A DNA stretch of 64,000 nt from Gemmatimonadaceae bacterium (GCA_035646395.1 DASRPK010000118.1:5920-69919), one strand, 5' to 3'. Positions 5,322 to 63,344 are shown, numbered from the stretch's first letter. A program made the numbers and translations. The notes: generated by a model not told the origin, from the letters alone.

Positions 5322-6341
5322 ATGAAAATCGGCTGGCGCGGACTTCTCGGGGTGGTCATCAGCGTCGCCCTGTTGTGGTGGACATTGCGGGGCGAGTCGT
5401 TCAGCGAGATCTGGACCGTCCTGCGCGACTCCAACGCCGCGTTGTTCATCCTCGCGGCAGCGGTGGCGACATTGATGTTTCCGCTGCGGGCCTGGCGCTG
5501 GCGCTACATCCTCGAGCCGACGGCGGGCAAGATCCCGTTTGGACCGTTGTGGCGTGCGACCGCGATCGGGTTCATGGTCAACAACGTCTCTCCTGCTCGA
5601 GCCGGCGAGCTCGCGCGGGCATACGTCCTTTCGCGCGAGACCGGTCGCGTTTCGTTCACTGCTTCGCTGGCATCGCTGGTTGTCGATCGCGTTTTCGACG
5701 CGCTGGTGGTCGTGCTTCTCCTCCTCGTCGTGGTTTCGCTCCCGGGCTTTCCCGCAGACGCCATGGTGGGGGGGTGGCCGATCAGCCGCCTGCTGCTCGC
5801 GGGAGCGCTCGTTGCGATGACGGCGCTCATTGCGCTGGTGCTCGCCGCATTGTTCCCGGAAACCCCGGCGCGACTCTGGGAGCGAGCGTTAGGCACCAGG
5901 GCGCCCCGCCTGATGGCCCGTGGGCGGGACATCCTGCTGTCGTTTGGTGCGGGCCTGAAGGTGCTCCGTGATGTCCGCCAATCGGCAATCGTTTTCCTGT
6001 GGGCACTACTGAGCTGGCTGGTGAACGCCGTCTCATTCTGGATCGCCTTCAAGGCCGTGGGCATCGACGCCCCGTTTACGGCAGCGCTGTTCCTTCAGAG
6101 CCTGTTGGCGGCGGCGGTGGCCGCGCCCTCCGCGCCCGGATTCTTCGGAGTGTTCGAAGCGTCAGCCAAGGTCGCGCTCAGCGTCTACGGGATCGATAAC
6201 ACGCTTGCCGTGAGTTACGCCCTCGGATACCACCTGCTCGGCTGGATCCCCATTACCGTGATCGGCTTCTGGTATCTCGGCAGGATGGGACTGCATTTGA
6301 AGGACATGAAGAACTCGCGGGACGCGACCGCGCCTCGATGA
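5322..6341 (+). CDS. UPF0104 / lysylphosphatidylglycerol-synthase-TM-region-like (flippase-like) membrane protein
   Basis: 339 aa and multi-pass. The N-terminus MKIGWRGLLGVVISVALLWWTLRG...LRAWRWRYIL is typical of this family. Confidence 0.6.
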   Translation: MKIGWRGLLGVVISVALLWWTLRGESFSEIWTVLRDSNAALFILAAAVATLMFPLRAWRWRYILEPTAGKIPFGPLWRATAIGFMVNNVSPARAGELARAYVLSRETGRVSFTASLASLVVDRVFDALVVVLLLLVVVSLPGFPADAMVGGWPISRLLLAGALVAMTALIALVLAALFPETPARLWERALGTRAPRLMARGRDILLSFGAGLKVLRDVRQSAIVFLWALLSWLVNAVSFWIAFKAVGIDAPFTAALFLQSLLAAAVAAPSAPGFFGVFEASAKVALSVYGIDNTLAVSYALGYHLLGWIPITVIGFWYLGRMGLHLKDMKNSRDATAPR

Positions 6342-7255
6342 ACGCGCAAGAAGCCCGGGTGGAAGCGCAGGCAAAAATCAACCTCCTCCTGCGTATCCTC
6401 GAACGCGAGGATTCGGGCTACCACCAGATCGAGACGCTGTTCTGTCGGATTGGCCTGGCGGATACCGTGACGGTGCGCGTCACGCCTCGGGACCACAGCC
6501 TGCTCTGTCACGGCGAGCGAGTCCCCGCAGCGGGACTGGGGCCGCCCGAAAAGAACCTGGCGTGGCGGGCGGCGGCGGCCTACGCAGAGGCCACAGGATT
6601 TCCCACCGGATTCCAGATCACGATCGAAAAGCGGATTCCGGTCGGGGCCGGCCTCGGCGGCGGCAGTGCCGACGCCGGAGCGGTCTTGCGGGCGCTGAAC
6701 GCACTCAATGCGCGTCCGGTGCCACCGGCGACCCTGCAACAGATCGCCTCCTCGTTAGGCGCGGACGTTCCGTTCCTCACGCTGGACGATGCGACGCTGG
6801 CCCTGGCCTGGGGACGCGGGGACCGGCTGGCGGCACTGCCCGGACTCCCGGCCAGCGCGGTCTGGTTGCTGGTGCCCGATGCGACAGTCAACACTGCCGA
6901 GGCGTACCGTTGGTTCGATGAGGCGGGACGCCCGTCGGGAGAATCGGTGATTCCGCGAGCCCGATTCGGCAGCTGGGAAGGGGTCGCGTCGGTAGCCGCA
7001 AATGATTTCGAGCCCGTGGTCGGCGAGAGGATCCCCAGGATAGGCCGCCTGCTGGCGACGCTTCGGAGCGATGAGTTGATGGAGTTGCTGGGTCCATCGG
7101 GCTCGATCCTCATGTCCGGGTCCGGCTCGACCATCGCGGTTGTCAGTGGCCAGCCGCGCGCCCCTCACATGAGCGCCATCCCCCCTCTAGCCGGAGTCAC
7201 CGTGATCGAGACGGAGACCGCTACTTTTGTTGAGCCGGTCGTTCTGACCCATTAG
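6338..7255 (+). CDS. ispE: 4-diphosphocytidyl-2-C-methyl-D-erythritol kinase
   Basis: AKINLLLRILEREDSGYHQIETLF and the GHMP-kinase motif KRIPVGAGLGGGSADAGAVL. ATGA overlap with the upstream gene. Confidence 0.9.
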   Translation: MNAQEARVEAQAKINLLLRILEREDSGYHQIETLFCRIGLADTVTVRVTPRDHSLLCHGERVPAAGLGPPEKNLAWRAAAAYAEATGFPTGFQITIEKRIPVGAGLGGGSADAGAVLRALNALNARPVPPATLQQIASSLGADVPFLTLDDATLALAWGRGDRLAALPGLPASAVWLLVPDATVNTAEAYRWFDEAGRPSGESVIPRARFGSWEGVASVAANDFEPVVGERIPRIGRLLATLRSDELMELLGPSGSILMSGSGSTIAVVSGQPRAPHMSAIPPLAGVTVIETETATFVEPVVLTH

Positions 7256-7272
7256 GTTGCCGCTCCCACTTC

Positions 7273-7343: not shown

Positions 7344-7397
7344 TTCCGTCCGGATTGACCTAACCTCCCGTCACATCTACGTTTCAAGGCTACGGTA

Positions 7398-8351
7398 ATG
7401 GACCTTTTGCCGGGTGTGCTCCGGGGATTCAAGCTGCTTTCCGGAAACGCCAACAGAGGACTCGCCGAGGAAATCGCCCGACATCTCGGAGTTGAGCTGT
7501 GCAGGATGACGCTCACTCGCTTTGCCGACGGTGAAATCTTCGTGCGGATCGATGAGAATGTCCGCGGTGCGGACGTTTTTATTGTCCAGCCGACCAATCC
7601 GCCGGCGGAAAACATCATGGAGCTGCTGCTCCTGATCGATGCCGCCAAGCGGGCGTCGGCGGCGCGGGTGACCTGCGTCATGCCGTATTACGGCTACTCG
7701 CGGCAGGACCGGAAGGACCAGCCGCGGGTGTCGATCGGGGCGAAGCTGGTGGCAAATCTGATCCAGACCGCGGGCGCTGACCGGGTGCTGGGACTCGATT
7801 TCCACCAGCATCAATTGCAGGGGTTCTTCGACGTCCCCGTCGATCACCTCTATGCCTCCCCGGTGCTGGTATCGCACTTTCGGAAGAAGCAGTTCACCGA
7901 TCTGGTGGTCGTTGCACCGGATGTCGGGTCGGCCAAGATGGCTCGCGGCTTTGCGCGGAAGCTCGACGCGGCGCTCGCGATCATCGACAAGCGACGCACG
8001 GGGCCTAACGTGGCCGAAGTGCTGAACGTGGTTGGTGAAGTCGAAGGACGGGATTGTCTCATCCCCGATGACATGATCGATACAGCCGGCACCGTCTCGG
8101 AGACGGCGCGGGCCCTGAAAAAACTGGGAGCGCGGGACATCTACATCTGCGCAACGCATGGACTGCTGTCTGGTCCGGCGGTCCAGCGGTTGAAGGACGC
8201 CCCGATTTCCGAGGTGGTAATCACCGACTCGGTGGTCGTGACGGAAGAGAAGCGGTTCGACAGGTTACGGGTGTTGTCCGTGGGTGAGCTGCTCGCGAAG
8301 GCGATTCGCTTTACGCACAGCGAGCAGAGCGTGTCGAGTCTGTTTGATTAG
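7398..8351 (+). CDS. prs: ribose-phosphate pyrophosphokinase
   Basis: 317 aa. KLLSGNANRGLAEEIARHLG...RFADGEIFV...YYGYSRQDRK...DDMIDTAGT motifs. Confidence 0.95.
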   Translation: MDLLPGVLRGFKLLSGNANRGLAEEIARHLGVELCRMTLTRFADGEIFVRIDENVRGADVFIVQPTNPPAENIMELLLLIDAAKRASAARVTCVMPYYGYSRQDRKDQPRVSIGAKLVANLIQTAGADRVLGLDFHQHQLQGFFDVPVDHLYASPVLVSHFRKKQFTDLVVVAPDVGSAKMARGFARKLDAALAIIDKRRTGPNVAEVLNVVGEVEGRDCLIPDDMIDTAGTVSETARALKKLGARDIYICATHGLLSGPAVQRLKDAPISEVVITDSVVVTEEKRFDRLRVLSVGELLAKAIRFTHSEQSVSSLFD

Positions 8352-9161: not shown

Positions 9162-9823
9162 GCTCGTTCGATTGGCTGAAGCGCTTCCTTGGCCGGGAAA
9201 GTGGCCGGGGCACGAGCGACGAGCCGATGAAGCTCATCGTCGGGTTAGGCAATCCGGGAAAAGAGTACGTCGATACACGGCACAACGTCGGCTGGTGGGT
9301 CATCGACCACCTGGCCGGCGTTTGGCGTTTCGAGGGATGGCGGAAGGACCAGAACTCGCTGGTCAGCGACGGGCGGGTGGGCAACCAGCGCGCACGGCTG
9401 GTCAAGCCGCAGACGTACATGAACCTGAGTGGCGGGATCCTGAGACCTTACCTCCGTCGCGAGACGTGGGAGGTGGCGAGGGACCTGCTCATCATTGTCG
9501 ACGAAGTAGCGCTACCGGTGGGGCGCTTCCGGTTGCGGGCGAGGGGGAGCGCCGGAGGACATAATGGCCTCAAATCCATTGAAGCCGCGGTGGGAGGTCA
9601 GGATTACGCTCGGTTGAGGGTTGGTGTCGGACCGGCGCCGGACCGAAAACGCGAGAGGGACCTGGCCGATTACGTGCTCGATCGAATGGGAAAAGGGGAA
9701 AGGAAGGAAGTGGAGGCTCTTTTTCCGGATCTCGTCGCGTCAGCTGAAACGTGGATTCGAGATGGGGTGGAACTCGCGATGACCCGGTTCAATCGGAAGG
9801 CGGATGTGGGAGATGGGAACTAA
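9158..9823 (+). CDS. pth: peptidyl-tRNA hydrolase
   Basis: MKLIVGLGNPGKEYVDTRHNVGWWVID...GGHNGLKSI. The ORF-track start is a TTG at 9158. The ATG at 9227 (MKLIVGLGNPG) is the more likely start. Confidence 0.9.
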   Translation: MSSFDWLKRFLGRESGRGTSDEPMKLIVGLGNPGKEYVDTRHNVGWWVIDHLAGVWRFEGWRKDQNSLVSDGRVGNQRARLVKPQTYMNLSGGILRPYLRRETWEVARDLLIIVDEVALPVGRFRLRARGSAGGHNGLKSIEAAVGGQDYARLRVGVGPAPDRKRERDLADYVLDRMGKGERKEVEALFPDLVASAETWIRDGVELAMTRFNRKADVGDGN

Positions 9824-9856: not shown

Positions 9857-10290
9857 GAAACTGCACGAACTCGATCCATTCTGTTGCGGGCAGGCTTCGC
9901 GTTCGCTTTTTCGAGCACCCTGACCCTGAGCGCCGTAAGCATCCCCGCTACCTGATCGATTCGGGCATCGAGTCTCGCGTAGTCAGACAGCGGCAGCAAT
10001 CCGAGGTCCTTGGCGAGGAGCACGTGGTAGTCGAGCTCGCGCACGGACCCGATCGCGATCGTTAGGTATCGCGCGAACTGTGCTGGCGTCACCTGGCCGC
10101 TACCTTCCGAGATGTTAGCCGCTATCGACATCGACGCACGACGCATCTGGTTGATCAGCGACGCGTATCGACCCCGATAAACGCGTTCGGTTACTTCGTG
10201 GATACTCAGCGTGAGTCGATGCGCGCGCTGCCAGACTGCAAGCTTTCGAAACGGGAACATGTAGAACTGTTGCTGGTCTTCAGCGAACAA
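9820..10290 (-). CDS. four-helix-bundle protein (23S rRNA intervening-sequence / S23-like family)
   Basis: FRKLAVWQRAHRLTLSIHEVT...LINQMRRASMSIAANISEGSG...FARYLTIAIGSVRELDYHVLLAKDLG is the typical TIGR02436-type pattern. The gene sits between inverted GGATGG-type repeat tracts. Confidence 0.75.
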   Translation of the reverse strand: MFAEDQQQFYMFPFRKLAVWQRAHRLTLSIHEVTERVYRGRYASLINQMRRASMSIAANISEGSGQVTPAQFARYLTIAIGSVRELDYHVLLAKDLGLLPLSDYARLDARIDQVAGMLTALRVRVLEKANAKPARNRMDRVRAVSPPSPIRHPPSR

Positions 10291-10392: not shown

Positions 10393-11060
10393 TCGACGGG
10401 AGCCATCACCCTCGCATCATCCGTTTTCGGGTCGTTCACCAGCAACCCGATCTCCCACGTTCGCATTTCGTCCGGTGAGAACGGACCAACCAGACGTCTC
10501 ACGTCTGCAATCTTCGTGGATTGGTCCAGCCACGCCTTATAGTCTCCGGGTCGAATAATGACTGGCATCCGATCATGAATCGGTTCCAGTAATTCGTTAG
10601 GCTCCGTGGTCAGAATCGCGCACGTAATCAGCCACTCGCCGCTCTCCTTCGCGCGCCACGCTTCCCAGAGCCCGCCGAGGGCAAAGATCTCGCCGTCTCG
10701 GATCGCGATCGCATAGGGCTTCCGCCGCTTCTGGCCCGGCACGTCCTGCCACTCATAAAAAACGTCGGCGGGGATAAGGCACCGGCGTTTCTGCATCGCC
10801 GCGCGAAAGGCGCCCTTTTCGAGCGCCGTATCGGACCGGACATTGGCCATCCGATTGCCAATGCTCGGGTCCTTGGCCCAGGACGGGACGAGTCCCCACC
10901 GTATCATCTCGGCCTCGGTGCCCCCCTTTCGTTCCCGCACCACCAGGATGTCGGAGCTGGGAGGGATGTTGTAACGCGGGACGAGGGGCGGGAGCTCGGT
11001 GATTCCGAAACGCTCCAGTTTCAGGGCTTCAGGGCGCGTGAGTCCGAATCGGCCGCACAT
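10389..11060 (-). CDS. SOS response-associated peptidase (SRAP/YedK, abasic-site processing protein)
   Basis: The start is set at ATG 11060 so that the protein begins MCGRFG (catalytic Cys2). WGLVPSWAKD motif is present. The ORF-track N-terminal 47 aa translate a repeat tract. Confidence 0.85.
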   Translation of the reverse strand: MCGRFGLTRPEALKLERFGITELPPLVPRYNIPPSSDILVVRERKGGTEAEMIRWGLVPSWAKDPSIGNRMANVRSDTALEKGAFRAAMQKRRCLIPADVFYEWQDVPGQKRRKPYAIAIRDGEIFALGGLWEAWRAKESGEWLITCAILTTEPNELLEPIHDRMPVIIRPGDYKAWLDQSTKIADVRRLVGPFSPDEMRTWEIGLLVNDPKTDDARVMAPVD

Positions 11061-11666: not shown

Positions 11667-11892
11667 TTCCATGCGGCGTCCGACGAAGAGCTGCCCCTTC
11701 TGCGAGACCCGCGTGCACTACGTCGACTACAAGGATGATCGCACGTTAGGCCGCTTCATTACGGACCACGGCAAGATCCTGCCGAGCCGGCTGAGCGGCG
11801 TCTGTGCGCGCCACCAGCGCCAGCTGTCAACCGCGATCAAGCGCGCCCGTTACCTCGCGATCATCCCCTACATCCGCGGTCAGCAGGCCTAG
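11656..11892 (+). CDS. rpsR: 30S ribosomal protein S18
   Basis: [60 protein letters not shown]. Overlaps the rpsF end. Confidence 0.9.
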
Positions 11893-14082: not shown

Positions 14083-17000
14083 GGCATCTCAGACAGGCAA
14101 GCCTGGTAGCGCTAGCGCTGATCCTCGTCGCGGTCGTCGCGGCACCGGTCAAAGCCCAGCAGTACTTCGGCCAGAACCAGGTCCAGTTCGACAAGTTCAA
14201 CTGGAAGGTCAAGGAAACGGCGCACTTCCTGATCCACTTCTATCCGGAAGAGCGCGACGGCATCAACGATGCCGCGCGCATGGCCGAGCGCTCGTATGCG
14301 CGCCTGTCCCGGATGCTCAAGCATGAGTTCCGCGAAAAGAAGCCGCTGATCCTGTATCGCTCCCGCGGCGACTTCGGGCAGAACAACGTGACGGGTGACC
14401 TGGGCGAAGGCGTCGGCGGTGTGACCGAGGCGCTGCGCCACCGGATCCTCCTCCCCTTCACCGGCGACTACAAGAGCTTTGAGCACGTTCTCGCGCACGA
14501 GCTCGTCCACGCGTTCCAATACGACATCTTTGCGCGCGGCCGGGCCGGCAACGGGCTGCAAACGCTGGCGCAGGTCGATCCACCGCTCTGGTTCGCGGAG
14601 GGCATGGCGGAATACCTGTCGCTCGGACCGAACCACATCCTCACGCAGTCCTGGGTCCGTGACGCGGCACTGAACGGTACGCTGCCCACCATCGAGCAGA
14701 TGACCGAGCGGCCGGACCTGTTCTTCCCCTACCGCTACGGAGAGGCGCTCTGGGAGTACATCGGTGGACGTTGGGGTGACGACGTCATCGGTGAGATCAT
14801 GAACTCCGCGCCTAACGTCGGCATCGACCGTGCCTTCAAGCGCGAGCTCGGCCTGAGCCTCGAGGAGTTGAGCGAGGAGTGGCGGGACGCGATGCAGGTC
14901 AAGCACCTGCCGCAGGTCTCCACCCTGGACCGCGCCCGCAAGTTCTCCGAGCCGTTGTTGTCCCAGCGCAAGACCGGTGGCTTCTCGCAGCTCTTCATCG
15001 CCCCCGCGCTCTCGCCGGACGGCAAGCTGATTACCTTCATCTCGCAGGGGAGTTTCCTGCGCGGTGAGGTTTTCCCCGATCTCTGGTTAGGCGATGCCGA
15101 GACGGGCAAGCGGATCAAGCGCCTCGTCCAGACGACTACGTCGCCGGACTTCGAGGAGCTGCGCCTGCTCTACTCGCAGAGCGCCTTCTCACCGGATGGC
15201 AAACTGCTCGCATTCTCCGCCCAGCGCGAAGGTCGCGACATCCTGTACGTGATGGACGTCCAGCGGCGGAAGACAATCAAGCGGTTCGACGTCGGCCTCG
15301 AATGGGTGACGTCGCCCAGCTGGAGTCCTGACGGCAAGCAGATCGTGGTGAGCGGATCGAGCACCGGCCTGACCGACCTGTTCGTGATCGACTACGAGAC
15401 GGCGGCCCTGCGCCGCCTGACGAACGACAAGAACGGCGACCTGCAGCCGGCGTGGTCCCCCGACGGGCAGCAGATCGCCTTCGTGACCGAGCGCGGTGAG
15501 ACCACCGACCTCGACATCCTGCGACTCGGGACGTGGAAGGTCGCGATCTACGACTTCCGCAACGGGAACATCGAGGTTGTCGGCGGCCAGGGCGGGCATA
15601 ACCTGAACCCGCAGTGGGCGCCCGATGGAAAGGCGATCGCCTACATCAGCGATCGCACAGGGATCGCGAACGTGTTCCTCTACGACGTGGGCAACAAGGA
15701 ACACTACCAGCTGACGAACGTGATCGGCTCGGTCAGCGGCATCACCGAGTACAGCCCCGCCATCACCTGGGCGCGTCAGGCCGACAAGCTCGCGTTCACG
15801 TACTTCGAGGACGGCGACTACACGGTCTGGATGACGAACAACCCGCGGCGGCTGCGCGACCAGCCGTTCCGGCCCAAGCCGGTGGTCGTGGCGTCGGCGC
15901 AGACACCTAACGCGGCCACCGCGGCGCAGACCATGGCCGCGCTGCGGCAGGCGGAGGCGCAGCGCGGCGAAAGCATGCGGGCAGCGATCGACGCTGCGGC
16001 ACGCGACTCAGGATCGGCAGGCGCCGATCCACGCCGGCAGTCCATCTATCGCGCGTCCACGGGCATCCGGCCATCGGCCGATATCCCGGGCATGAACGAA
16101 CGGTCGGGCGCGAGCCCGGTGAGCGTGGCGCAGTTGCTCGACAGCGTGAACCTGGCCCTCCCCGACACGACAACCTTCCGCGAATACGACTACAAGGTTG
16201 GATACCGGCCGGAATCGATTTACCGGCCGAGCATCGGCTACGCGCAGGACAATTACGGTCGTGGCCTGTATGGCGGCGCGGGCGTGATCCTGGCCGACCT
16301 GCTGGGCAACAACCAGATGATCGTTGCCGGCCAGGTGAATGGCCGGTTGAGCGAGGCCTTCCTCCTCGGCGCCTACACCAGCCTCGGGAATCGCCTGCAG
16401 TACACCCTGGGCGTGTCCCAATCGCCCTATTTCTTCGTGCAGGACTATGGATGGACCCCGTTCGGTGACGGCAGCGCGAATTTTCTCGAGGAGTACGTCG
16501 TTGCGCGCTACATCGTGCGTGAGGCTTTTGCCATCGGCATGAGACCATCCAACCGCTTCAACCGGATGGAGCTCGGTGTTTCTGCCAATAACGTGTCACG
16601 CTCCATCGCGGTGTATAGCCGCGCGGTGGATGGGTACACTGGCTACGGCACGCAATGGCTCGTGGACAGCATCATCAACTTCCCTGGCCTGAATTACATC
16701 GCGCCATACGTAGCGTACGTGTCGGACAATTCATTGTTCGGATATACCGGCCCGATCGCCGGCCGGCGCTATCGCGTACAGGTGCAACCGGTCGTGGGCG
16801 GACTGCGCTGGACGGAATTTTCGGCGGACTACCGTCGTTATGTGCCCCTGCTCTTCAATTTCCTCACGGTCGCCTGGCGGACCCAGACCAGCATCGGCGT
16901 CGGACCCGACGAGATGATGTTCCCGAAGTACCTCGGTCGCGCGGACTTTGTGCGCGGATACGACCGTGAACAGTATGCCGCCCAGTTCTGCGGCGGAATC

Positions 17001-17481: not shown

Positions 17482-17515
17482 TACTCTTTGTTTCCCCGCT
17501 TGCCCCGCCTAACTT

Positions 17516-32371: not shown

Positions 32372-32432
32372 GTCCCTAACGGGACGGGCCACCGGTCACC
32401 GCGACGACTGGGGCCGTACACGAGCTTCCGGA

Positions 32433-41816: not shown

Positions 41817-41958
41817 CGCACGGTGAGAGCCAGCGGCGGTTCTGTTTCATGAGAATGACCAAAGGAACCTAACATTTGCGCGCGGTCGGCGGTCACGGCA
41901 TCTCATGAACTGGCGGACTATCGGACGGTTCCCTAGCTTCGCGTTGGGCGGTCCTGAC

Positions 41959-44463: not shown

Positions 44464-44464
44464 G

Positions 44465-51805: not shown

Positions 51806-52452
51806 CGGCCGCGGCGGTAGAGGGTGATTTCGCCCCGGGACACGCGGACGTCGCCGATATACTCGGGAATGGAGATCGCGATCCCGTTAGGCGCGACCCC
51901 TTCCGGCCTGACACTGGCGTCCAGGCGCGCCAGCAATCGCGGAATCGCCGCGCGCGGGAGCGAAAGGTCGGCAATCTTCACCGACGCCACCCGGAATTCG
52001 CCGAGTCCGGGGCGCAGGACCCCCATCGTGCCGGTGAACTCGATGCGCTCGCGTTTGTCGAGGATGCTCGCCAGCGGACCTAACGCGTCGAGCCCGCGCA
52101 GGTCCTCGAGTTCCACGAGCGCACGAACGCGCACGGTTTCACTGTCGACCGCCGCCTCCACCGAATCGAGATTCGCCGGCAGCCTGTGCCCGGAACTCGC
52201 CACCATGAGCTCCGCCAGTTCGGCGGCGGATACCGTGACATAGGCCGGCCCATTGGGCCGACCGAGAGACGCAATGTCGTCACCGGTCTTCTGCGTGCCG
52301 GCACCGGGTTCCTTGACCGTTTCCCAGGTCACCGGCGCGGGCTCTCCACGACCGAGCACACGCGGCATCCACCGGTCGCGCATGAGGAACGCGACCGCGC
52401 CCGCCAGCACGAGCAGGAGAAGACACCCGAGTCGACCAAGACAGGAGAACAC
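51802..52452 (-). CDS. hypothetical membrane-anchored protein
   Basis: N-terminal anchor LGCLLLLVLAGAVAFL. Coupled to the NtrC-like gene. No family recognised. Confidence 0.45.
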   Translation of the reverse strand: MFSCLGRLGCLLLLVLAGAVAFLMRDRWMPRVLGRGEPAPVTWETVKEPGAGTQKTGDDIASLGRPNGPAYVTVSAAELAELMVASSGHRLPANLDSVEAAVDSETVRVRALVELEDLRGLDALGPLASILDKRERIEFTGTMGVLRPGLGEFRVASVKIADLSLPRAAIPRLLARLDASVRPEGVAPNGIAISIPEYIGDVRVSRGEITLYRRGR

Positions 52453-53057: not shown

Positions 53058-53235
53058 CGTCCGGATCCAGTTCCAGCGCGAGGTGCGTGAAGCCCTCTTC
53101 CTTTGCAAGGCGCAGCACGTCGGCACGCACCGCCGCTGTCAGGTAACCCGGGGCCGCGACTATTATTGCCAGGCGATCCCGCACTTCAATGCGGCACGTG
53201 ATGCCCTCCTGCGCAAGGCGAGACGTTAGGTTCAC
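53035..53235 (-). CDS. small hypothetical protein (66 aa)
   Basis: GTG 53235 overlaps the larE-like stop (GTGA). The product is VNLTSRLAQEGITCRIEVRDRLAIIVAAPGYLTAAVRADVLRLAKEEGFTHLALELD... It is supported only by coupling geometry and plausible composition. Confidence 0.35.
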   Translation of the reverse strand: MNLTSRLAQEGITCRIEVRDRLAIIVAAPGYLTAAVRADVLRLAKEEGFTHLALELDPDGAALPGN

Positions 53236-54109: not shown

Positions 54110-54895
54110 TTACTTCGGCTTCTGCGCCGCGCGACTGGCGAGCGCCCAGGCAAACGCCTCCTGCATGAGATCCGGAGGCACCGTGTGACCACCCACGAAA
54201 GTCTTGAGCGTCACCTCATAGCCGGCCCGGCTCAGCATTGGCGCAATGCGCTCGCTCGTGTCCTCGAACGGCAGGATGGGATCGTTATTGCCGTGCGTGA
54301 TGTACACCTCGGGCTTTCCCGCCGCTGTACTGGGAGGGATGAATCCCGGAGAGAACGCCACGATGCGCGTGAACAGGTCGCCATTCATTCTGCCGATTGC
54401 CAATGCGTACGATGCGCCGTCGGAAAACCCCGACACAATCACGCGCGACGGATCGATCGACACGCGCGAAAATACGATTCTCAACGCGCTGTCCAGGAAC
54501 GCGATATCGGGGCCATACATGCCGCGGATGGCGTCCCAGGTTGGACCTCGCGAATCGGGAATGAGCAGGGCGAAGTCGAGACTGTCGGAGGCGCCGAACA
54601 GGCGGCGACGGATTCCCTGCGCTGACCCGCCGGCACCGTGAAGCATCACGACGAGCGGAACCGGTCCCCTCGCGGCCGCGCGCGGAACGAACAGCAGGCC
54701 GTCGCGCTCGCGGCCCAGGCGCAGCTGCACAAAGCCGGAGACTGGTGTGCCAGTGACCGTGCGCGGCCTGGCTTTCAGCCGGCCATCCCGCCACACCAGG
54801 TCCTGCGACTGACCTAACGAGCAGGCAGCAATGGCTGCGACAGATGCCAGCGTGAGCAGGCGTTTGTGGCGTGATGGCGTGAGCGGGAGGGTCAC
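54110..54895 (-). CDS. alpha/beta hydrolase (phospholipase/carboxylesterase-type)
   Basis: Lipobox-like LASVAAIAAC, VVMLHGAGGSA, nucleophile elbow GFSDGAS, C-terminal GGHT. Confidence 0.7.
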   Translation of the reverse strand: MTLPLTPSRHKRLLTLASVAAIAACSLGQSQDLVWRDGRLKARPRTVTGTPVSGFVQLRLGRERDGLLFVPRAAARGPVPLVVMLHGAGGSAQGIRRRLFGASDSLDFALLIPDSRGPTWDAIRGMYGPDIAFLDSALRIVFSRVSIDPSRVIVSGFSDGASYALAIGRMNGDLFTRIVAFSPGFIPPSTAAGKPEVYITHGNNDPILPFEDTSERIAPMLSRAGYEVTLKTFVGGHTVPPDLMQEAFAWALASRAAQKPK

Positions 54896-55361: not shown

Positions 55362-57068
55362 ATGACCACACACGAGAACTACGGAAACTCGGACGACCTG
55401 CCATTGATCATCCAGGGCGGGATGGGTGTCGGCGTTTCCAACTGGGTTCTCGCGAAGGCAGTCTCGATGCGTGGCCAGTTAGGCGTTGTATCCGGGACCT
55501 GTGTCGACTCGATTCTCGTGCGCCGGCTGCAGGACGGAGACATTGGTGGACACGTGCGTCGCGCGATGGCGCACTTTCCGATTCCGCACGTCGCAGAAGC
55601 GGTACTGAGCAAGTTCTTCATCGCCGATGGCCGACCGCCGCGCACGCCGTACAAGGCGCTCCCGATGTACAAGCAGACGGTGAGCCTGGCGCGGCAGCAG
55701 ATCACCATGATCGCGGCATTCGTGGAGGTCTGGCTGGCGCGTGAGGGGCACTCCCGCCCAGTCGGCATTAACCTGCTGACGAAAGTACAAATGCCCAACC
55801 TGCCGACGCTGTATGGCGCAATGCTGGCCGGCGTCGGCTACGTCCTCATGGGCGCCGGCATCCCGCGTGAGATTCCGGGGGTGCTCGACAACCTCGCGAA
55901 CCACGATTCCGTTTCCATCAAGTTCGACGTCGAAGGTCTCGCGGCAGGTGAGACCGAATATCTCCGCTTCGATCCCCGCGAGCACTGGTCTCCGGGTGAC
56001 CTGCTCTATCGTCCGCGATTCCTGGCCATCATCTCGGCGAATTCGCTGGCCACATCGCTCGCTCGTAAGGCAACGGGTCGGGTCGATGGCTTCGTCATTG
56101 AAGCGCCGACGGCGGGTGGACATAACGCACCGCCGCGCGGAGAGCTCAAGCTCAATGAGCAGGGCGAGCCGGTCTACGGTGAGCGCGACATCGTCGATCT
56201 CGACAAGATGATCGAGCTGGGATTGCCGTTCTGGCTCGCCGGTGGCGCCGGATCCCCCGAGCGACTCCAGGCGGCTCGCGCCGCCGGCGCCGCAGGGATC
56301 CAGGTCGGCACGTTGTTCGCGTATTGCGAAGAGTCCGGTTTCACGTCGGCACTCAAGAACCAGGTGCGGGACGGCGTTATGCAGGGACGCGTTGGCGTGC
56401 GAACGGATCCGCGCGCTTCGCCCACGGGCTACCCGTTCAAGATCGTCGAGATCGAAGGCGTGAACTCACGGGCCGAGGGTCGCAAACGATGCTGCGACCT
56501 GGGCTACCTCCGAACGGCGTATCGCGAGGAAAGCGGACGGCTCGGATACCGATGCGCGGCCGAGCCCATCGATACATACGTGAAGCGCGGTGGACAGATC
56601 GAGGACACGGAAGGGCGGAAATGCCTGTGTAACGGCTTGTTCGCGAACATCGGGCATGCCCAGGTTCGCAACGATGACGTGGATGAACGCCCGATCATTA
56701 CGAGTGGCGATGAACTCGCCTGCCTCGGCGCCTTCTTCGGCGAACATCCGCAATACACCGCCGGCGACGTGATCGAACACCTGCTCAGTCTCCACGTGGC
56801 GTCGAACGGACATGTCGCCTCCAACGGCGCTGCGTCATCCAATGGCCACGGATCACTCAATGGCGATCACGAGTCGAATGGGCATGCGCCCGTCAACGGT
56901 CAGGTTGCGCTCCTGAACGGTCAGCACGCGAATGGCAATGGGTCGGCCAATGGCAACCGATCGCGGAGCGCTCGCGACGCGGAGGACGCTGATCCGGCCG
57001 ACGCAGTCGGGCGGAATGGCAAAGGCGTGGCGAACCCGGCGCACGTTCATTCGCGAGTCATCGCATAA
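55362..57068 (+). CDS. nitronate monooxygenase-like (NMO/2-nitropropane dioxygenase family) protein with Asn/Gly-rich C-terminal tail
   Basis: From ATG 55362: LPLIIQGGMGVGVSNWVLAKAVS...GFVIEAPTAGGHNAPP...WLAGGAGSP. The last ~90 aa are SNGHVASNGHVASNGAASSNGHGSLNG... low complexity. Confidence 0.65.
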   Translation: MTTHENYGNSDDLPLIIQGGMGVGVSNWVLAKAVSMRGQLGVVSGTCVDSILVRRLQDGDIGGHVRRAMAHFPIPHVAEAVLSKFFIADGRPPRTPYKALPMYKQTVSLARQQITMIAAFVEVWLAREGHSRPVGINLLTKVQMPNLPTLYGAMLAGVGYVLMGAGIPREIPGVLDNLANHDSVSIKFDVEGLAAGETEYLRFDPREHWSPGDLLYRPRFLAIISANSLATSLARKATGRVDGFVIEAPTAGGHNAPPRGELKLNEQGEPVYGERDIVDLDKMIELGLPFWLAGGAGSPERLQAARAAGAAGIQVGTLFAYCEESGFTSALKNQVRDGVMQGRVGVRTDPRASPTGYPFKIVEIEGVNSRAEGRKRCCDLGYLRTAYREESGRLGYRCAAEPIDTYVKRGGQIEDTEGRKCLCNGLFANIGHAQVRNDDVDERPIITSGDELACLGAFFGEHPQYTAGDVIEHLLSLHVASNGHVASNGAASSNGHGSLNGDHESNGHAPVNGQVALLNGQHANGNGSANGNRSRSARDAEDADPADAVGRNGKGVANPAHVHSRVIA

Positions 57069-58088: not shown

Positions 58089-58122
58089 GACAAACTGCGG
58101 CGGCACTTAATCGAAGCCTAAC

Positions 58123-59217
58123 GTGACCGAGGAACTGCAGTACACGCCACCTGACTTCGATTCGCCGCACCTCCGCGCGGCTCCACCGGCGCGCGTGGTG
58201 ACCTGCGAAGCGGACGGTGTCTTGCCCGAGGGCTTTTTCGCGACGACGAACCTGCCTTCCTACGTGAAAGGCGAAGATGGCCTGTGGCGCATGCCCCGCG
58301 AGCCCCGCATGGACGGCTGTCTCGTCAGGGATGAGAAGGGAGGTTGGTGGGTTCGCGAGGGACGTCGCGTGCGTCACGGCGACGCGGTCGTGGTGGGCAA
58401 GGCTGAAGATGGCAGTGAAGGCGTCCTGGTGCACGCGCACGGCTTCGAGCCACCGGGAAGCGTCACCGGTGACTTCCACTTCATGTCGAGCCAGGTCTCA
58501 CGCGAGAAGCCCATCGACTATGGGATGCTGGCGCGGATGCTCGTCGCCGAGCGACGGCGCGGGGGCTACGTCCTGTGGGTAACCGGCCCGGCGCTCGTGC
58601 ACTCCCGGGCGCGGGACAACCTGGTCTGGTTCATCCGTCACGGGTTCGTGCAGGCGTTGCTGGCGGGGAATGCGGTGGCCGTCCACGACATCGAGGCCGC
58701 GGTGGTGGGTACCACGTTAGGCATGACGGAACAGGGGATGCCCACCGAGGGTGGTCACTCCGCGCACATGCGCGCAATTAATTCAGTGCGGCGATCGGGT
58801 TCGATCGCCGCTGCCGTGCGGGATGGATTGATCGCCGAGGGTATCATGCACGCGTGCGTGATCGAGGAAGTGCCGTTCGTGCTGGCTGGATCGATCCGCG
58901 ATGATGGCCCTTTGCCGGACGTGTTCACCGATGCGGTCGCGGCACAGGACGCGATGCGAGCACACACGGTGAAGGCGACGATGGCGGTGATGGTCGCGAC
59001 CGCGCTGCACTCGATTGCGGTCGGCAACATGCTGCCGGCCTATTACGAGGATCCGGAGCGCGGAATTGTGGAGCTGCCGACGATCTGTGTGGATGCAAGC
59101 GAGTTTCTGGTCAGCAAGTTGAAGGATCGGGGGACGCACCAGGCGGTAGGCGTGGTGACGAATGCGCAGGATTTCATGAGCATTTTGAGGGCGGCGGTGG
59201 AGGAGGAGATGAGTTGA
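58123..59217 (+). CDS. TIGR00300-family (LOR/SDH conserved-region) protein, possible ornithine cyclodeaminase-type enzyme
   Basis: 364 aa, GTG start. The family call is from memory of this family's pattern (…WVTGPALVHSRARDNLVWFIRHGFVQALLAGNAVAVHDIE…), together with its position directly after arginase. Confidence 0.5.
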   Translation: MTEELQYTPPDFDSPHLRAAPPARVVTCEADGVLPEGFFATTNLPSYVKGEDGLWRMPREPRMDGCLVRDEKGGWWVREGRRVRHGDAVVVGKAEDGSEGVLVHAHGFEPPGSVTGDFHFMSSQVSREKPIDYGMLARMLVAERRRGGYVLWVTGPALVHSRARDNLVWFIRHGFVQALLAGNAVAVHDIEAAVVGTTLGMTEQGMPTEGGHSAHMRAINSVRRSGSIAAAVRDGLIAEGIMHACVIEEVPFVLAGSIRDDGPLPDVFTDAVAAQDAMRAHTVKATMAVMVATALHSIAVGNMLPAYYEDPERGIVELPTICVDASEFLVSKLKDRGTHQAVGVVTNAQDFMSILRAAVEEEMS

Positions 59218-59283: not shown

Positions 59284-60805
59284 ACTCGCGCTGATCCGTC
59301 CGATAATGCAACGCCTCAGCCACATGCCGCTGTGTGATTCCGGGATCGGCATCGAGGTCTGCGATCGTTCGCGCCACCTTGAGGACGCGATGATATCCGC
59401 GGGCTGAGAGCGCGAGCCGCGTCGCGGCTGTGGCAAGCAATTCCCGCGCCGATGCGTCGATTCCACCATTCGCATCCAGCCAGCGGCCGTGCACGTGTGC
59501 ATTGCACGTCACCGACGCAAATGATCTGTAGCGGAGGGCCTGTCGAGCCCGAGCCAGTTCCACACGCTCGCGAATGACGCAGGACGCCTCCGCCCGCGAC
59601 GACTCGGCCAGCACCCGCAGCGGAACGGCCGGAACCCGCACGGTCATGTCGATCCGGTCGGCCAGCGGACCGGAGACTTTCGAGCGATGGCGAGCAACGT
59701 CGAGCGCAGAGCAGGTACAGCTCGTGCCGTTCGGGCTACCGAGCCGGCCGCATGGGCAGGGATTCATGGCGCCAACCAGCGTGAAGCGCGCGGGAAACGC
59801 GACTGACCGCGCCGCCCTGGCAATGACGACGCGCCCTTCCTCCAACGGCTGGCGCAGGGCATCCAGCACGTGACGCGGCATCTCCTGGAGCTCATCGAGA
59901 AAGAGGACGCCGTGGTGTGCGAGGCTTACCTCCCCCGGGCGCGGTCCGCTGCCTCCGCCGATCAGCGCCGCCGCCGACAACGTGTGATGTGGCGCGCGAA
60001 ACGGTCGACGGCCGGAGGGTGCTTCGCCAGGCGTCACCAGTCCCGCCACCGAGTGGATCGCCACCACATCGAGCGCTTCCGCTTCGCCTAACGCGGGAAG
60101 GATCGTGGGCAGCCGGCGGGCGAGCATCGTCTTGCCGGTCCCGGGCGGGCCGATCATCAGGACCGCATGGCCGCCGGCGGCCGCGATCTCGAGGGCCCGC
60201 TTGGCCAGTGGCTGACCGGCCACGTCCGCCATGTCCGCGGCGTCCTCCGGCTCATTCACCAGCGCAGCCACCGCCGGCGGTGCGGACAACGCGTCGCGGC
60301 GAAGGGCGTCCACCAGCATCGCCAGCGACTCGGCTGCACTGATTTTGATGGATGACACGAGAGCCGCTTCGGGAACGTTCGGCAGCGGGAGGATGAGGGT
60401 CGGATCCGTCGGTGCGCGGGCGAGCAGTCTGGCAACGGGCAGTACGCCCCGCACTGGTCGAAGTGACCCATCGAGCCCCAGTTCGCCGAGTGCGACGATG
60501 CCGTCGGTGGCACCATTGCGAAGTTGTCCGGTCGCCACGAGAAGCCCTAACGCGATCGGCAGGTCGAAGGCGGTGCCGTCCTTACGGGTATCGGCTGGGG
60601 CGAGATTAATAGTGACCCGCCTGGGAGGCACCTGGAAACCCGAATTGACGACCGCCGCCGATACGCGTTCCCGGCTCTCGCGAACCGCACCCGCCGGTAG
60701 ACCAACTATGGTCCATTGAGGTAGTCCGGCGGCGACGTCTACCTCGACCACAACGTGGTACGCGTCAATCCCTACGACGGCGGCCGATGCGATCGCGGCG
60801 AGCAT
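59282..60805 (-). CDS. YifB/ComM-family Mg-chelatase-like AAA+ ATPase
   Basis: N-terminal Lon-like domain (VVEVDVAAGLP...IVGLP), Walker A GPPGTGKTMLARRL, GVLFLDELQE, C-terminal ChlI-type region. Confidence 0.9.
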   Translation of the reverse strand: MLAAIASAAVVGIDAYHVVVEVDVAAGLPQWTIVGLPAGAVRESRERVSAAVVNSGFQVPPRRVTINLAPADTRKDGTAFDLPIALGLLVATGQLRNGATDGIVALGELGLDGSLRPVRGVLPVARLLARAPTDPTLILPLPNVPEAALVSSIKISAAESLAMLVDALRRDALSAPPAVAALVNEPEDAADMADVAGQPLAKRALEIAAAGGHAVLMIGPPGTGKTMLARRLPTILPALGEAEALDVVAIHSVAGLVTPGEAPSGRRPFRAPHHTLSAAALIGGGSGPRPGEVSLAHHGVLFLDELQEMPRHVLDALRQPLEEGRVVIARAARSVAFPARFTLVGAMNPCPCGRLGSPNGTSCTCSALDVARHRSKVSGPLADRIDMTVRVPAVPLRVLAESSRAEASCVIRERVELARARQALRYRSFASVTCNAHVHGRWLDANGGIDASARELLATAATRLALSARGYHRVLKVARTIADLDADPGITQRHVAEALHYRTDQRE

Positions 60806-60969: not shown

Positions 60970-60980
60970 GGACCCCGCCT

Positions 60981-63344
60981 TCACGCCGCGGTGGCCGCTC
61001 GAATCAGGCCGACATCGGAGACAAGCAATTCCTCGATCGTCGCGCTCGACACGGGACGGCTGAAAAGAAACCCCTGCACCGCCTCACAGCCAAGCGACGC
61101 CAGTACCTCGAACTGCTCCCACTGTTCCACGCCTTCGGCAATGGTCCGCAAGTCGAGCGCCTCGGCGAGCGATACGATCGTGCGCACGAACGCCGCATCG
61201 TGATCGCCGCGCTGAAGACCCTCGGTGAACGATCGATCGATCTTGAGAATGTCGACCGGGAAGCGCTGCAAATAGGAGAGCGAGGAGTACCCTGTGCCGA
61301 AATCATCGATGGCCAGTCGCACGCCCAGTTGCTTGAGCTCCCGCAGCCGCGCCAATGTCGCTTCGGTCTCCTGCATGATCACGGTCTCGGTGATCTCCAG
61401 CACAAGGTTTTCTGGCGCCAGCCCGGAAGCCGACAGCGCGCCTTCCACAATAGCCGGCAGACCGGGGTCGGGAAGCTGGCGACCGGAAATGTTGACGGTC
61501 ACAGTGATCGGCTGGCGAGGACGGGCGGCATTCCATCCTGCTGCGCGGCGGCACGCCTCGCCTAACACGCGCGCACCTAACGGGATGATCATGCCGCTTT
61601 CTTCGGCAACGGGGATGAACACCGATGGCGGCACCGTGCCTCGGTCGATGTGCGACCACCGCAACAGCGCTTCGGCGCCGATGATCAGGCCGGTCGCGAC
61701 ATCGACGATCGGCTGGTAGGCCAGACCGAGCTCATTCCCGTCGCCTTCGATGGCACGGCGCAGGTCGGCTTCCAGAGACACGCGTTCGACGATCGCTTCA
61801 TGCATCCGCGGATCGTAGTGCACCCAGCCTCCGCGGGCCTGTGCCTTCGCCGCATACATGGCGACGTCGGCATTACGCAGCAGCTCGTCCGGCGACTCTC
61901 CGCCATGCCATGTCGCTATCCCGACGCTCGCCGACGCCACCACCTCACGTCCGGGGTCGATCTCGATCGGCCTTTCAAGCGCTCGCGTTATGCGCTGAGC
62001 CACGATCTCGACTCCCTCCCGACCATTCGGACTGTCAAGGAGCACCGCGAATTCGTCGCCACCGAGGCGTGCCACCGTATCGCAACCGCGCGTAGCGCTC
62101 AACAAACGGTCGCCGACGATGCTGAGCAAACGATCTCCAGCGCTGTGCCCCTGCGTGTCGTTTACCGCCTTGAAATTGTCCAAATCGAGGAACAACACCG
62201 ACAGCAGTTCGCGGTCACGCGCCAGGCGCGCCATCGCGTGGCCGAGCCGGTCAAGGAAGAGCGTACGATTGGCCAGCCCCGTCAAATGATCGTGGAACGC
62301 CTGATGGAGCAGCTGCGCCTCGAGTGTCTTTCGTTCGCTGATGTCCTGCACCATTGCGATCAGCCGGAATTCGTTGCGGTCTTCGGCTCGAGAGAGCGTG
62401 ACCGTACCCCAGCCGACACGGCCGTCCCCGCGAACGAACCGCAGCTCTGCGCTGCCGTTCTCGCGGGCTCCTGAACCGACATCGTGGAGGAGTTCCGCCA
62501 TCAGGTCGGCGTGCTCGGGCGGTGTGAAGTCCGTCAGACGTCGATCCCTCAGCTCCTCCTGACTCGCGCCGAGGAACTGTTCGAACGCAGCATTCGTGTC
62601 GCGTATGGTGGAATCGGCTCCCAGGACGACGATGCCTGTCGCCGAATGCTCGAACACGGCGCGGAAACGTTCATCGGCAGAGCGTGACGCCTCGATCGCG
62701 CGGCGTAGCGTACGTTCGTTCCACGCGGTCGCGTACGTGATGACTACGCCGCCGACAATGAGAAGCAGCACCTTCGCGGTTTCGTCGAGCCACGACGTGC
62801 CGGTCGTGACGACCGACTCCAGCGGTGACGGCAGCAACGATACCCGCGCCGTGAGCAGGAAGAAGAGCGCAACGACCGCGTATTGCACGGCGACCGTGGC
62901 CGACGCCGCCGCTGCACGCCGTGGCGAACCGGTAAAGGGTCGGGCAGCGAGGATGATGAAGTAGGCTGTCCAGATGGGTGACTTGACCGCGAGATCGGGA
63001 AGGCCTTGCAGTCCGTAGCCGAAGAGCAGCGTCGATACGGCCGTTATGTCGACGTACGTATTGATCGCCGACAGCGGCTGCCAGGGATATCGCTTGCGAT
63101 GAAAGCGGAAATGCTGAAAGACCGCCCAGGTGAGCATGGGCGTGAGCACGCCCACGTTCACAAGGTTCAGCTCACGCGTCAGTGCCGGCGCCCAGAGGGC
63201 GGCGACGAAGGCCAGCGAAATCAGGACACCGAGACGCACCACGTTCACGGTGCGCTCGGCCGCGATGTACTGCGCCTGAAGCACCGCGGCGGTCGCGGAC
63301 TCGAAGGGAGATTGTCCCGAAGAAGTGGAGTGGCGCATTGGCAC
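60981..63344 (-). CDS. membrane-bound PAS-GGDEF-EAL c-di-GMP signalling protein
   Basis: N-terminal multi-TM region, PAS (FRAVFEHSATGIVVL), RLGGDEFAVL (GGDEF), EALLRW and DDFGTGYSSLSYL (EAL). Confidence 0.9.
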   Translation of the reverse strand: MPMRHSTSSGQSPFESATAAVLQAQYIAAERTVNVVRLGVLISLAFVAALWAPALTRELNLVNVGVLTPMLTWAVFQHFRFHRKRYPWQPLSAINTYVDITAVSTLLFGYGLQGLPDLAVKSPIWTAYFIILAARPFTGSPRRAAAASATVAVQYAVVALFFLLTARVSLLPSPLESVVTTGTSWLDETAKVLLLIVGGVVITYATAWNERTLRRAIEASRSADERFRAVFEHSATGIVVLGADSTIRDTNAAFEQFLGASQEELRDRRLTDFTPPEHADLMAELLHDVGSGARENGSAELRFVRGDGRVGWGTVTLSRAEDRNEFRLIAMVQDISERKTLEAQLLHQAFHDHLTGLANRTLFLDRLGHAMARLARDRELLSVLFLDLDNFKAVNDTQGHSAGDRLLSIVGDRLLSATRGCDTVARLGGDEFAVLLDSPNGREGVEIVAQRITRALERPIEIDPGREVVASASVGIATWHGGESPDELLRNADVAMYAAKAQARGGWVHYDPRMHEAIVERVSLEADLRRAIEGDGNELGLAYQPIVDVATGLIIGAEALLRWSHIDRGTVPPSVFIPVAEESGMIIPLGARVLGEACRRAAGWNAARPRQPITVTVNISGRQLPDPGLPAIVEGALSASGLAPENLVLEITETVIMQETEATLARLRELKQLGVRLAIDDFGTGYSSLSYLQRFPVDILKIDRSFTEGLQRGDHDAAFVRTIVSLAEALDLRTIAEGVEQWEQFEVLASLGCEAVQGFLFSRPVSSATIEELLVSDVGLIRAATAA

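Follow-up and report, generated by a model that had tools for sequence, protein, structure and literature searches.

The DNA analyzed here, called the window below, is the whole 64,000-nucleotide stretch G000:C118:5920-69919 (64.5% GC) of a soil Gemmatimonadaceae bacterium, and its genes and spacers carry many copies of one short DNA word. An earlier note on this DNA had seen that the rare leucine codon TTA recurs as TTA-GGN (Leu-Gly) and that Pro-Asn recurs as CCT-AAC, and had proposed that selection on a motif overrides codon bias. Here, we report that TTA-GGN, CCT-AAC, CTA-ACG, and GTT-AGG arise from a single word of double-stranded DNA that genes read in frame in four ways, and that the codon anomalies are caused at the DNA level by this word, against codon bias. 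Throughout the text, the core of the word is GTTAGG, its 8-mer is CGTTAGGC, and CGTCAGGC is a co-word of g1, the genus of the window's genome; genomes are coded G, contigs C, loci L, and genera g, each with a number. The window's genome, G000, has 4.65 Mb in 335 contigs, a GC content of 63.5%, and a completeness of 90%. Genes were called over the entire assembly with a crude caller of our own, which gave 2,979 genes covering 76% of the bases and missed short genes and some open reading frames (ORFs); the calls in the window comprise 18,697 codons. For comparison, we used 40 relatives for word counts, 41 relatives for profile searches, and a family survey of 193 Gemmatimonadaceae genomes, each at least 95% complete.

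In the window, there are 56 copies of TTAGG (30 on the plus strand and 26 on the minus strand), 52 of GTTAGG, and 43 of CGTTAGG. An order-2 Markov model expects only 5.9 copies of GTTAGG against the 52 observed and 0.9 copies of CGTTAGGC against the 29 observed. The copies, including variants of the 8-mer, are as follows.

4636..4643, plus: CGTTAGGC, GTT-AGG (Val-Arg) in a plus-strand gene
5887..5894, plus: CGTTAGGC, GCG-TTA-GGC, Ala-Leu-Gly
6753..6760, plus: CGTTAGGC, Ser-Leu-Gly
7358..7365, minus: GGTTAGGT, spacer between tRNA-Gln and prs
8003..8010, minus: CGTTAGGC, CCT-AAC (Pro-Asn) as read in a plus-strand gene
9243..9250, plus: GGTTAGGC, Gly-Leu-Gly in pth (IVGLGNPG)
10060..10067, plus: CGTTAGGT, DNA without a gene call
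10595..10602, plus: CGTTAGGC, CCT-AAC as read in a minus-strand gene
11744..11751, plus: CGTTAGGC, ACG-TTA-GGC (Thr-Leu-Gly), rpsR according to the earlier note, a gene below the caller's size
14810..14817, minus: CGTTAGGC, CCT-AAC in a plus-strand gene
15085..15092, plus: GGTTAGGC, Trp-Leu-Gly; CTC or CTG at this site in G009, G002, and G004
15905..15912, minus: CGTTAGGT, CCT-AAC in a plus-strand gene
17507..17514, minus: AGTTAGGC, spacer
18360..18367, plus: CGTTAGGC, Pro-Leu-Gly
20290..20297, plus: CGTTAGGT, gives the TAG stop (20293-20295) to the gene upstream of smc
23156..23163, plus: CGTTAGGC, Ala-Leu-Gly in smc; also in L001-L004 and three distant word-bearing lineages
26327..26334, minus: CGTTAGGC, CCT-AAC according to the earlier note, in an uncalled ORF
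26928..26935, minus: CGTTAGGC, Ala-Leu-Gly in a minus-strand gene
27890..27897, plus: GGTTAGGC, CCT-AAC in a minus-strand gene
28848..28855, minus: CGTTAGGC, Thr-Leu-Gly in a minus-strand gene, at the overlap of two genes
29819..29826, plus: CGTTAGGT, CTA-ACG (Leu-Thr) in a minus-strand gene
32374..32381, minus: CGTTAGGG, spacer
32902..32909, plus: CGTTAGGC, Ala-Leu-Gly
33540..33547, minus: CGTTAGGC, Ala-Leu-Gly
33801..33808, minus: CGTTAGGC, Thr-Leu-Gly
34998..35005, plus: CGTTAGGC, CTA-ACG in a minus-strand gene
35169..35176, plus: CGTTAGGT, CCT-AAC in a minus-strand gene
35388..35395, plus: CGTTAGGC, CCT-AAC in a minus-strand gene
35827..35834, minus: CGTTAGGC, Ala-Leu-Gly
37350..37357, minus: CGTTAGGC, Ala-Leu-Gly
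41112..41119, plus: CGTTAGGC, CTA-ACG in a minus-strand gene
41867..41874, minus: TGTTAGGT, spacer
43086..43093, plus: CGTTAGGC, GTT-AGG (Val-Arg)
43587..43594, minus: CGTTAGGC, CCT-AAC in a plus-strand gene
44458..44465, plus: CGTTAGGT, gives the TAG stop (44461-44463) to a gene of 852 amino acids (aa)
46307..46314, minus: CGTTAGGC, CTA-ACG in a plus-strand gene
46706..46713, minus: CGTTAGGC, Ala-Leu-Gly; sigma factor according to the earlier note
47448..47455, minus: GGTTAGGC, Arg-Leu-Gly; lepB according to the earlier note
51885..51892, plus: CGTTAGGC, CCT-AAC in a minus-strand gene
52078..52085, minus: CGTTAGGT, Ala-Leu-Gly
53224..53231, plus: CGTTAGGT, spacer immediately after a stop codon
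53882..53889, plus: CGTTAGGC, CCT-AAC in a minus-strand gene
54812..54819, minus: CGTTAGGT, Ser-Leu-Gly
55477..55484, plus: AGTTAGGC, Gln-Leu-Gly
58116..58123, minus: CGTTAGGC, spacer
58715..58722, plus: CGTTAGGC, Thr-Leu-Gly
60086..60093, minus: CGTTAGGC, Ala-Leu-Gly in comM
60545..60552, minus: CGTTAGGG, Ala-Leu-Gly in comM
61560..61567, minus: TGTTAGGC, Val-Leu-Gly; EAL protein according to the earlier note
61575..61582, minus: CGTTAGGT, Pro-Leu-Gly, 15 bp from the copy at 61560
63428..63435, plus: CGTTAGGG, its TTA is the TAA stop (63430-63432, minus strand) of a minus-strand gene
63571..63578, minus: CGTTAGGT, Ala-Leu-Gly

Three of these copies thus provide stop codons. The two main readings were counted as before: the 26 TTA-GGN pairs comprise 25 in called genes and the rpsR copy at 11746, and the 11 CCT-AAC pairs comprise 10 in called genes and the one at 26328. 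For the minor readings the earlier counts need correction, as we found four CTA-ACG pairs instead of five (the fifth CTA-ACN pair is CTA-ACC and carries no word copy) and three GTT-AGG pairs instead of two. The statement that TTA is used almost only as TTA-GGN was overstated, i.e., 18 of the 43 TTA codons in the window (42%) have no GG next to them; these 18 stand among about 1,930 leucine codons (<1%), in agreement with the remark that TTA is scarce outside this context.

The word is not peculiar to the window. In G000, to which the counts of this and the next two paragraphs refer unless stated otherwise, CGTTAGGC is the most over-represented 8-mer, with 1,991 copies versus 183, 83, and 68 expected under order-0, order-1, and order-2 Markov models, and its excess is 24-29-fold over the Markov expectation. 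The 8-mer is about equally frequent on the two strands (forward 983, reverse 1,008), and the density throughout the genome ranges from about 0.4 copies per kb for the 8-mer to 0.7 for the core, which has 3,431 copies in 4.65 Mb. Chance and base composition are ruled out by the order 0-2 models together with the word-poor relatives of similar GC. A logo extending 30 nt to either side gave C (80%)-GTTAGG-C (76%) or T (14%), with flanks that otherwise display codon periodicity only; an element of the repetitive extragenic palindrome or miniature inverted-repeat transposable element type was rejected, since there is neither flank nor hairpin conservation past the core in this logo.

The word can be written generally as Y-GT[T/c]A[G/t]G-Y; its main form is CGTTAGGC, and only four of the 24 one-letter variants are enriched as well: CGTCAGGC (1,910 copies), CGTTATGC (688), CGTTAGGT (448), and TGTTAGGC (347). 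CGTTATG is enriched in G000 and in the SMC loci of its closest relatives. The variant CGTCAGGC fills all frames, including those that need the rare AGG and CCT codons, and reaches 840-1,930 copies in all ten g1 genomes, the CGTTAGGC-poor G005 included, against a baseline of about 200 elsewhere. Genus g1 carries two co-words, CGTYAGGC. What is seen with TTA is just one half of the picture in this genus because CGTCAGGC is equally abundant and brings the rare codons TCA, AGG, and CCT.

The codon-pair table of the whole genome, which the earlier note had called for, agrees with its claim: TTA is rare and stands preferentially before GGN, in 1,575 of the 2,956 TTA codons (53%) versus a background of 8.7%. 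The third glycine base is likewise restricted (TTA-GGC 1,313, versus TTA-GGA 26 and TTA-GGG 51), NCG directly precedes 52% of the TTA codons, and the TTA share of leucine is 15.7% within Leu-Gly and 1.3% elsewhere. CCT accounts for 32% of proline within Pro-Asn versus 9.7% overall, and CCT-AAC (648, versus 10 CCT-AAT) encodes 31% of the Pro-Asn pairs; smaller excesses are found for CTA-ACG (147) and GTT-AGG (106, about twice the expectation). All four codons are disfavored genome-wide as had been stated, TTA with 2.6% and CTA with 1.3% of leucine, CCT with 9.7% of proline, and AGG with 5.3% of arginine. Genes for tRNA-Leu(UAA), present once, tRNA-Leu(UAG), tRNA-Arg(CCU), and tRNA-Pro(GGG) were found, so the suggested check for a tRNA reading TTA came out positive. 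By reading, the core copies fall into TTA-GG (1,545), CCT-AAC (646), CTA-AC (139), and GTT-AGG (106), with a further 101 in TAG and 52 in TAA stops; counted from the stop codons, 113 of 858 TAG (13%) and 54 of 567 TAA lie inside the word. Uncalled DNA holds 842 core copies, that is 24.5% of the copies in 23.7% of the bases.

Selection on the peptide is ruled out, because Leu-Gly occurs at 1.01 of its expectation and Pro-Asn, at 1.19, is not above Pro-Asp at 1.25; the dipeptides themselves are not inflated. A function in RNA is unlikely because the word occupies at least as high a share of the usable dipeptides in antisense (31% of Pro-Asn) as in sense (16% of Leu-Gly). The earlier proposal that a DNA or RNA word rather than a peptide is selected is therefore sustained for DNA and against the peptide, and its RNA branch has lost ground. 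A translational effect, in which TTA would be a regulatory rare codon as in the bldA system of Streptomyces or TTA-GGN a favored pair, could appeal to the rarity of TTA in this GC-rich genome, which has one tRNA-Leu(UAA) gene, and to sense copies outnumbering antisense copies by about 2:1. The latter ratio follows from the dipeptide supply, 10,043 Leu-Gly versus 2,061 Pro-Asn. The word is also read as CCT-AAC, CTA-ACG, GTT-AGG, TAG, and TAA, it fills spacers, the preceding NCG and the following C are fixed too, and, in contrast to bldA, TTA lies in housekeeping genes (pth, smc, comM, and, according to the earlier note, rpsR) as just one frame of a DNA word. A translational cause is already contradicted by these observations and is hardly tenable, and the earlier denial of a bldA-like switch was correct.

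The word is restricted to part of the family. Copies of the 8-mer range from 6 to 6,360 per genome across the 40 relatives, and the distribution over the 193 family genomes is bimodal, about 39 having 400-7,821 copies and most others 5-60; G121 has 4,469 copies. On an SMC tree of 81 loci, nearly all members of a 24-row clade that includes the window have the word at 0.3-2 copies per kb, and a 57-row sister clade is without it, except for a three-row subclade with four core copies per 7.5 kb. Genus g49 is split evenly, with five genomes at 3,244-4,141 copies (G140-143 and G145) and five at 9-66 (G144 and G146-149). G013 versus G011, and G038 and G040 versus G026 and G034, provide further independent contrasts. 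No alternative hyper-abundant word was found in 100-kb samples of the word-poor relatives G005, G011, G034, and G035. In the sample G005:C2:100001-200000 (L098-L102), the top k-mers are units of heptamer tandem repeats of the GGGAAGC/GCGGGAA type.

Individual sites can be followed between genomes. An x-Leu-Gly that 81 SMC sequences conserve stands at the column of window position 23157; nine word-bearing sequences have NCG-TTA-GGY there and most others CTC, CTG, CTT, or TTG, a synonymous recoding of the kind for which the earlier note had suggested comparing orthologues. Word sites in SMC are common within clades, and the same columns recur in distant lineages. In syntenic DNA of 72-79% identity, the G000 sites are kept at 7/9 in G006, 18/30 in G002, 10/30 in G009, and 3/7 in G004; pooled over the word-rich congeners, 38 of 76 aligned sites are kept, about twice the average for 6-mers, any of which is identical at 22-27% of positions. 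With G001, which has fewer copies, 3 of 18 G000 sites are common. Sites unique to G000 mostly stand opposite GCTSGG (CTC/CTG-GG) in the relatives, i.e., two substitutions away, and they far outnumber the relative-only sites (20 versus 2 against G009). At 9244, 11745, and 15086, two to three relatives agree on CTS, and the word was therefore gained in G000. The word is maintained across speciation and is still being gained in G000.

The arrangement of the copies along G000 is not random either. Their spacing is more even than chance (coefficient of variation 0.90 over 3,176 gaps), gaps below 200 bp being too few (238 versus 485 expected) and those of 400-1,600 bp too many (1,773 versus 1,436 expected). 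Across deciles of genes by GC content at third codon positions (GC3), the density climbs from 0.35 (lowest decile) to 0.94 per kb (highest decile), and the TTA-GG share of Leu-Gly from 7.8% to 23.4%; the trend is also present in genes of at least 500 aa (rho 0.30). In frame-free 5-kb windows the density goes from 0.55 to 0.92 per kb with window GC (rho 0.27), as TTA trinucleotides become fewer (5.8 to 3.7 per kb). Although it contains A and T, the word thus peaks in frequency where GC is highest in the rest of the DNA. There is no sign of replication polarity in G000 (gene-strand-corrected orientation per contig, variance of z 1.41; correlation with GC skew, rho 0.05), and orientation is mixed over 60-100 kb in G049, G048, G121, and G210; in this respect the word differs from polar words of the FtsK-orienting type (KOPS), as its orientation is not skewed with replication.

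The longest word-free stretch of G000 is 18 kb (G000:C288:39295-57303) and contains mnmE, yidC, dnaA, and dnaN. This dnaA block has 61% GC and a GC3 of about 0.69, the variant words are absent from it too, and its TTA trinucleotides are normal. It is syntenic and old (74-78% identity to three congeners), has identical boundaries in G006, and is extended to 30 kb in G001. Six other genera have dnaA in a gap of 1.7-6.3 kb; in four of them, with 3-6.3 kb, this gap ranks within the top three by size in its sample. A broad word-free origin zone throughout the family was rejected, as 18-30 kb is found only in g1 and 1.7-6.3 kb elsewhere. Further long word-free stretches of G000 are the whole 15.6-kb contig G000:C164 and G000:C260:13423-24348, with a lower GC3 of 0.71-0.80; these two could be recently acquired or mis-binned DNA.

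We consider the word most similar to known self-DNA tags. The DNA uptake sequence (DUS) of Neisseriaceae (with the core GCCGTCTGAA and the minor pilin ComP as its reader) and the uptake signal sequence (USS) of Pasteurellaceae (AAGTGCGGT core) share with it a short non-palindromic form, about one copy per kb, equal strands, placement within genes in a few tolerated frames, clade restriction with dialects, and conservation at orthologous sites. A frame bias of DUS and USS inside genes has been documented (bioRxiv 10.1101/2025.10.24.684340), and so have DUS dialects (PMC3630211). The word of the Gemmatimonadaceae differs from both in being 8 bp without flank signal, in the lack of spacer enrichment and of inverted terminator pairs, in belonging to another phylum with no ComP-type receptor identified, in its word-free dnaA block, and in being all-or-none within g49. 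Similar to the highly iterated palindrome HIP1 of cyanobacteria (GCGATCGC), it is an octamer imposed on coding DNA (HIP1 is 15-300-fold over-represented) and patchy across its phylum; for a long time HIP1 had no known function, and a link to transformation has since been made. Methylated HIP1 is reported to enhance transformation, an effect that depends on methylation (PMC13756078), and another report describes HIP1 as conserved beyond neutral expectation and quasi-evenly spaced (PMC5861425). HIP1, however, is a palindrome with the known methylases DmtA and DmtC, whereas our word is asymmetric and its sole candidate methylase does not co-vary with it. A further difference is that VirB4, the sole marker of type IV secretion that was searched, occurs in only 2 of the 193 genomes; type IV secretion was dropped as a determinant on this basis.

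Our favored explanation, for which we would give a probability of roughly 40%, is that the word may be a recombination-linked self-DNA tag comparable to DUS, USS, or HIP1. The tag-like traits are the DUS/USS-like density, the few enriched variants, the clade restriction, the g1 dialect, the site conservation, and the even spacing; the density rises with GC3 and with window GC, in keeping with a link to recombination or residence; and genes of transformation are present in G000, namely ComEC, ComEA-like HHH_3 proteins, and ComM. We infer that the force acts on DNA and scales with homologous recombination or with residence time, and a recombination-scaled force would explain the preference for GC3-rich, long-resident genes, the even spacing, the orthologous conservation, and the clade restriction with a dialect. 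In such a process, word-bearing fragments would be preferentially taken up or integrated during natural transformation, and word-bearing alleles would then outpace removal by point mutation and codon selection; the TTA-GGC frame would win because Leu-Gly is a common dipeptide and one rare codon suffices.

Several observations speak against this explanation. Unlike DUS and USS, for which close inverted pairs and use in terminators are typical, the word shows neither, and opposite-strand neighbors less than 50 bp apart make up only 14 of the 3,176 gaps in G000. The word-free dnaA block has no obvious explanation under an uptake model, and one-letter intermediates between CTS-GG and TTA-GG are not enriched. 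No receptor gene for the word was found. PilQ and DprA were not detected in G000 (90% complete), and both were rejected as determinants, as PilQ-like secretins (39/41 relatives) and DprA (36/41) are near-universal in the order irrespective of the word and equally present in word-poor relatives. Phage DNA is a further difficulty. When IMG/VR was scanned for two copies within 30 nt, contigs of matching GC with a host-like word density were obtained, for example L222 (IMGVR_UViG_3300020577_001838) with 10 cores in 13.5 kb, and L215 and L229 with six 8-mers each; these are tailed-phage contigs at 66% GC, and the proteins encoded in L222 include a minor tail protein, a tape-measure protein, and a tail terminator. 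An uptake drive explains the density in L222 only if the phage is temperate.

Other mechanisms have to be weighed against the self-DNA tag. Word-directed biased repair or gene conversion within the cell, i.e., short-patch correction of heteroduplexes towards the word, possibly coupled to methylation and without any uptake, would account for the density following GC3, as GC-biased gene conversion would, for the phage tail module carrying the word at host density, and for G000 gains that change two bases at once (CTC/CTG-GG to TTA-GG) where one-letter variants are not enriched. HIP1 is tied to methylases, and among the genes of G000 is one (G000:C300:16886-20053) for an Eco57I/MmeI-like N6-adenine methyltransferase that is about 1,055 aa long and combines an MmeI helicase spacer with a TaqI-like specificity domain; the reverse complement of the co-words, GCCTRACG, has the shape of MmeI-type sites (TCCRAC). 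This methyltransferase, however, is found in 39 of 41 Gemmatimonadales relatives, word-poor ones included, and its tree follows taxonomy, and it was set aside as a determinant on the evidence of the whole protein. For an enzyme of restriction-modification type, such a near-universal occurrence along taxonomic lines is unusual. Profiles for Vsr (PF03852), C5-cytosine methylase (PF00145), and N4/N6 methylase (PF01555) had no match in G000, so a Vsr and C5 methylase pair was rejected as the driver, and the effect of Vsr in Escherichia coli is far weaker than a 24-29-fold excess. Taken together, we regard biased repair as unlikely. We judge as equally unlikely the view that the word is the site of an abundant chromosomal protein, either a nucleoid organizer kept off the origin or an unpolarized Chi-like self signal that restrains a nuclease in lineages without AddAB and RecBCD. 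The even spacing would suit it, as would the word-free dnaA block with its counterparts among the largest gaps of other genera, and phage DNA with the word is expected of self-signal mimicry. As with Chi, a short over-represented word (5-8 letters for Chi) marks own DNA, and one 8-mer per about 4.6 kb per orientation is near the frequency of E. coli Chi; in contrast to Chi, there is no orientation bias relative to GC skew or contig, and the enrichment is far above that of known Chi sites. The canonical Chi readers were not found, with RecC in 1 of 41 relatives and no match to PDDEXK_1, the AddAB-type nuclease, in G000 (90% complete), and no candidate binding protein was identified. Elsewhere, PDDEXK_1 helicase-nucleases occur as AddAB-like adjacent pairs of about 1,050 aa each, and strong matches are present in 43 of 154 word-poor versus 1 of 39 word-rich genomes (Fisher p = 2e-4, kinship ignored), in 5/5 word-poor versus 0/5 word-rich genomes of g49, and in 8/25 versus 0/16 of the relatives set. 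The near-absence of AddAB and RecC in word-rich genomes therefore rules out a canonical Chi. This anti-correlation, which would favor such a self signal, is a lead only, since related genomes are not independent and a single ancestral loss, or a few, may lie behind it; AddAB is present in G210, the genome richest in the word, and many word-poor genomes are without it.

The letters of the word also coincide with GTTRRRY, the core site of integrons, which GTTAGGC fits. In the word-poor relative G027, copies are clustered and co-oriented at about every 550 bp, and L309 (G027:C95:1-20000) contains 23 co-oriented attC hairpins of about 90 nt, GCCTAAC...CGTTAGGC, whose R' end is exactly CGTTAGGC; L309 is a large chromosomal integron cassette array, because its 20 kb are without an ORF of at least 400 aa and without tandem repeats. 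The word could accordingly be pictured as a by-product of the integron integrase, with copies as secondary recombination sites or remnants: C or T occupies position +6 in 90% of the word's copies, which fits the final Y of the core site, and IntI is present above the TIGR02249 cut-off in G000 (C138:58817-59755, at a contig end, 430 bits) and in 135 of the 193 family genomes. The copies in G000, however, are bare words, and a scan of this genome for attC-like pairs (inverse core RYYYAAC with core GTTRRRY and a palindromic interior) found none. IntI is absent from the word-rich G048, G051, G141, and G143 and present in the word-poor genera g27, g40, and g42, and was discarded as a determinant because it is widespread and, in uncorrected presence counts, not correlated with the word. 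The co-word CGTCAGGC has GTC and breaks the invariant GTT triplet, and integron insertion and excision are precise and leave no scar. We therefore think an integron origin of the word very improbable.

Returning to the self-DNA tag, RecBCD, AddAB, Vsr, type IV secretion, and IntI are excluded as determinants. A more specific proposal, which we offer tentatively and with less confidence than the tag in general, is that CGTYAGGC may be the word of an undescribed self-DNA system, either an uptake or transformation tag or an unpolarized Chi-like signal for a new end-processing machine, that accumulates only without AddAB and is kept off dnaA. Our literature search found no paper naming the word and none describing such a word in Gemmatimonadota; new here are the codon-pair quantification, the g1 co-word, the gradient in density with GC3, the regular spacing of the copies, the dnaA block, the exclusion of the determinants just named, and the AddAB anti-correlation.

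For the organism itself, more than half of the TTA codons, a third of the Pro-Asn pairs, and 13% of the TAG stops of G000 belong to the word. Hyper-abundant words are known from very few groups (DUS, USS, HIP1, and Chi), to which the Gemmatimonadaceae are added as a fourth, and each known word exposed a machinery that separates own from foreign DNA. Clues to the mechanism are that the density increases with GC3, that the word is missing around dnaA, and that word-rich genomes almost lack AddAB-like genes. The natural on/off contrast in g49 (five genomes above 3,200 copies and five below 70) makes the reader gene findable by comparative genomics, and the density of the word could flag recently acquired DNA. 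If the tag explanation is true, this would be the first such tag, for uptake or transformation, from a group other than Proteobacteria and cyanobacteria, namely the Gemmatimonadota.

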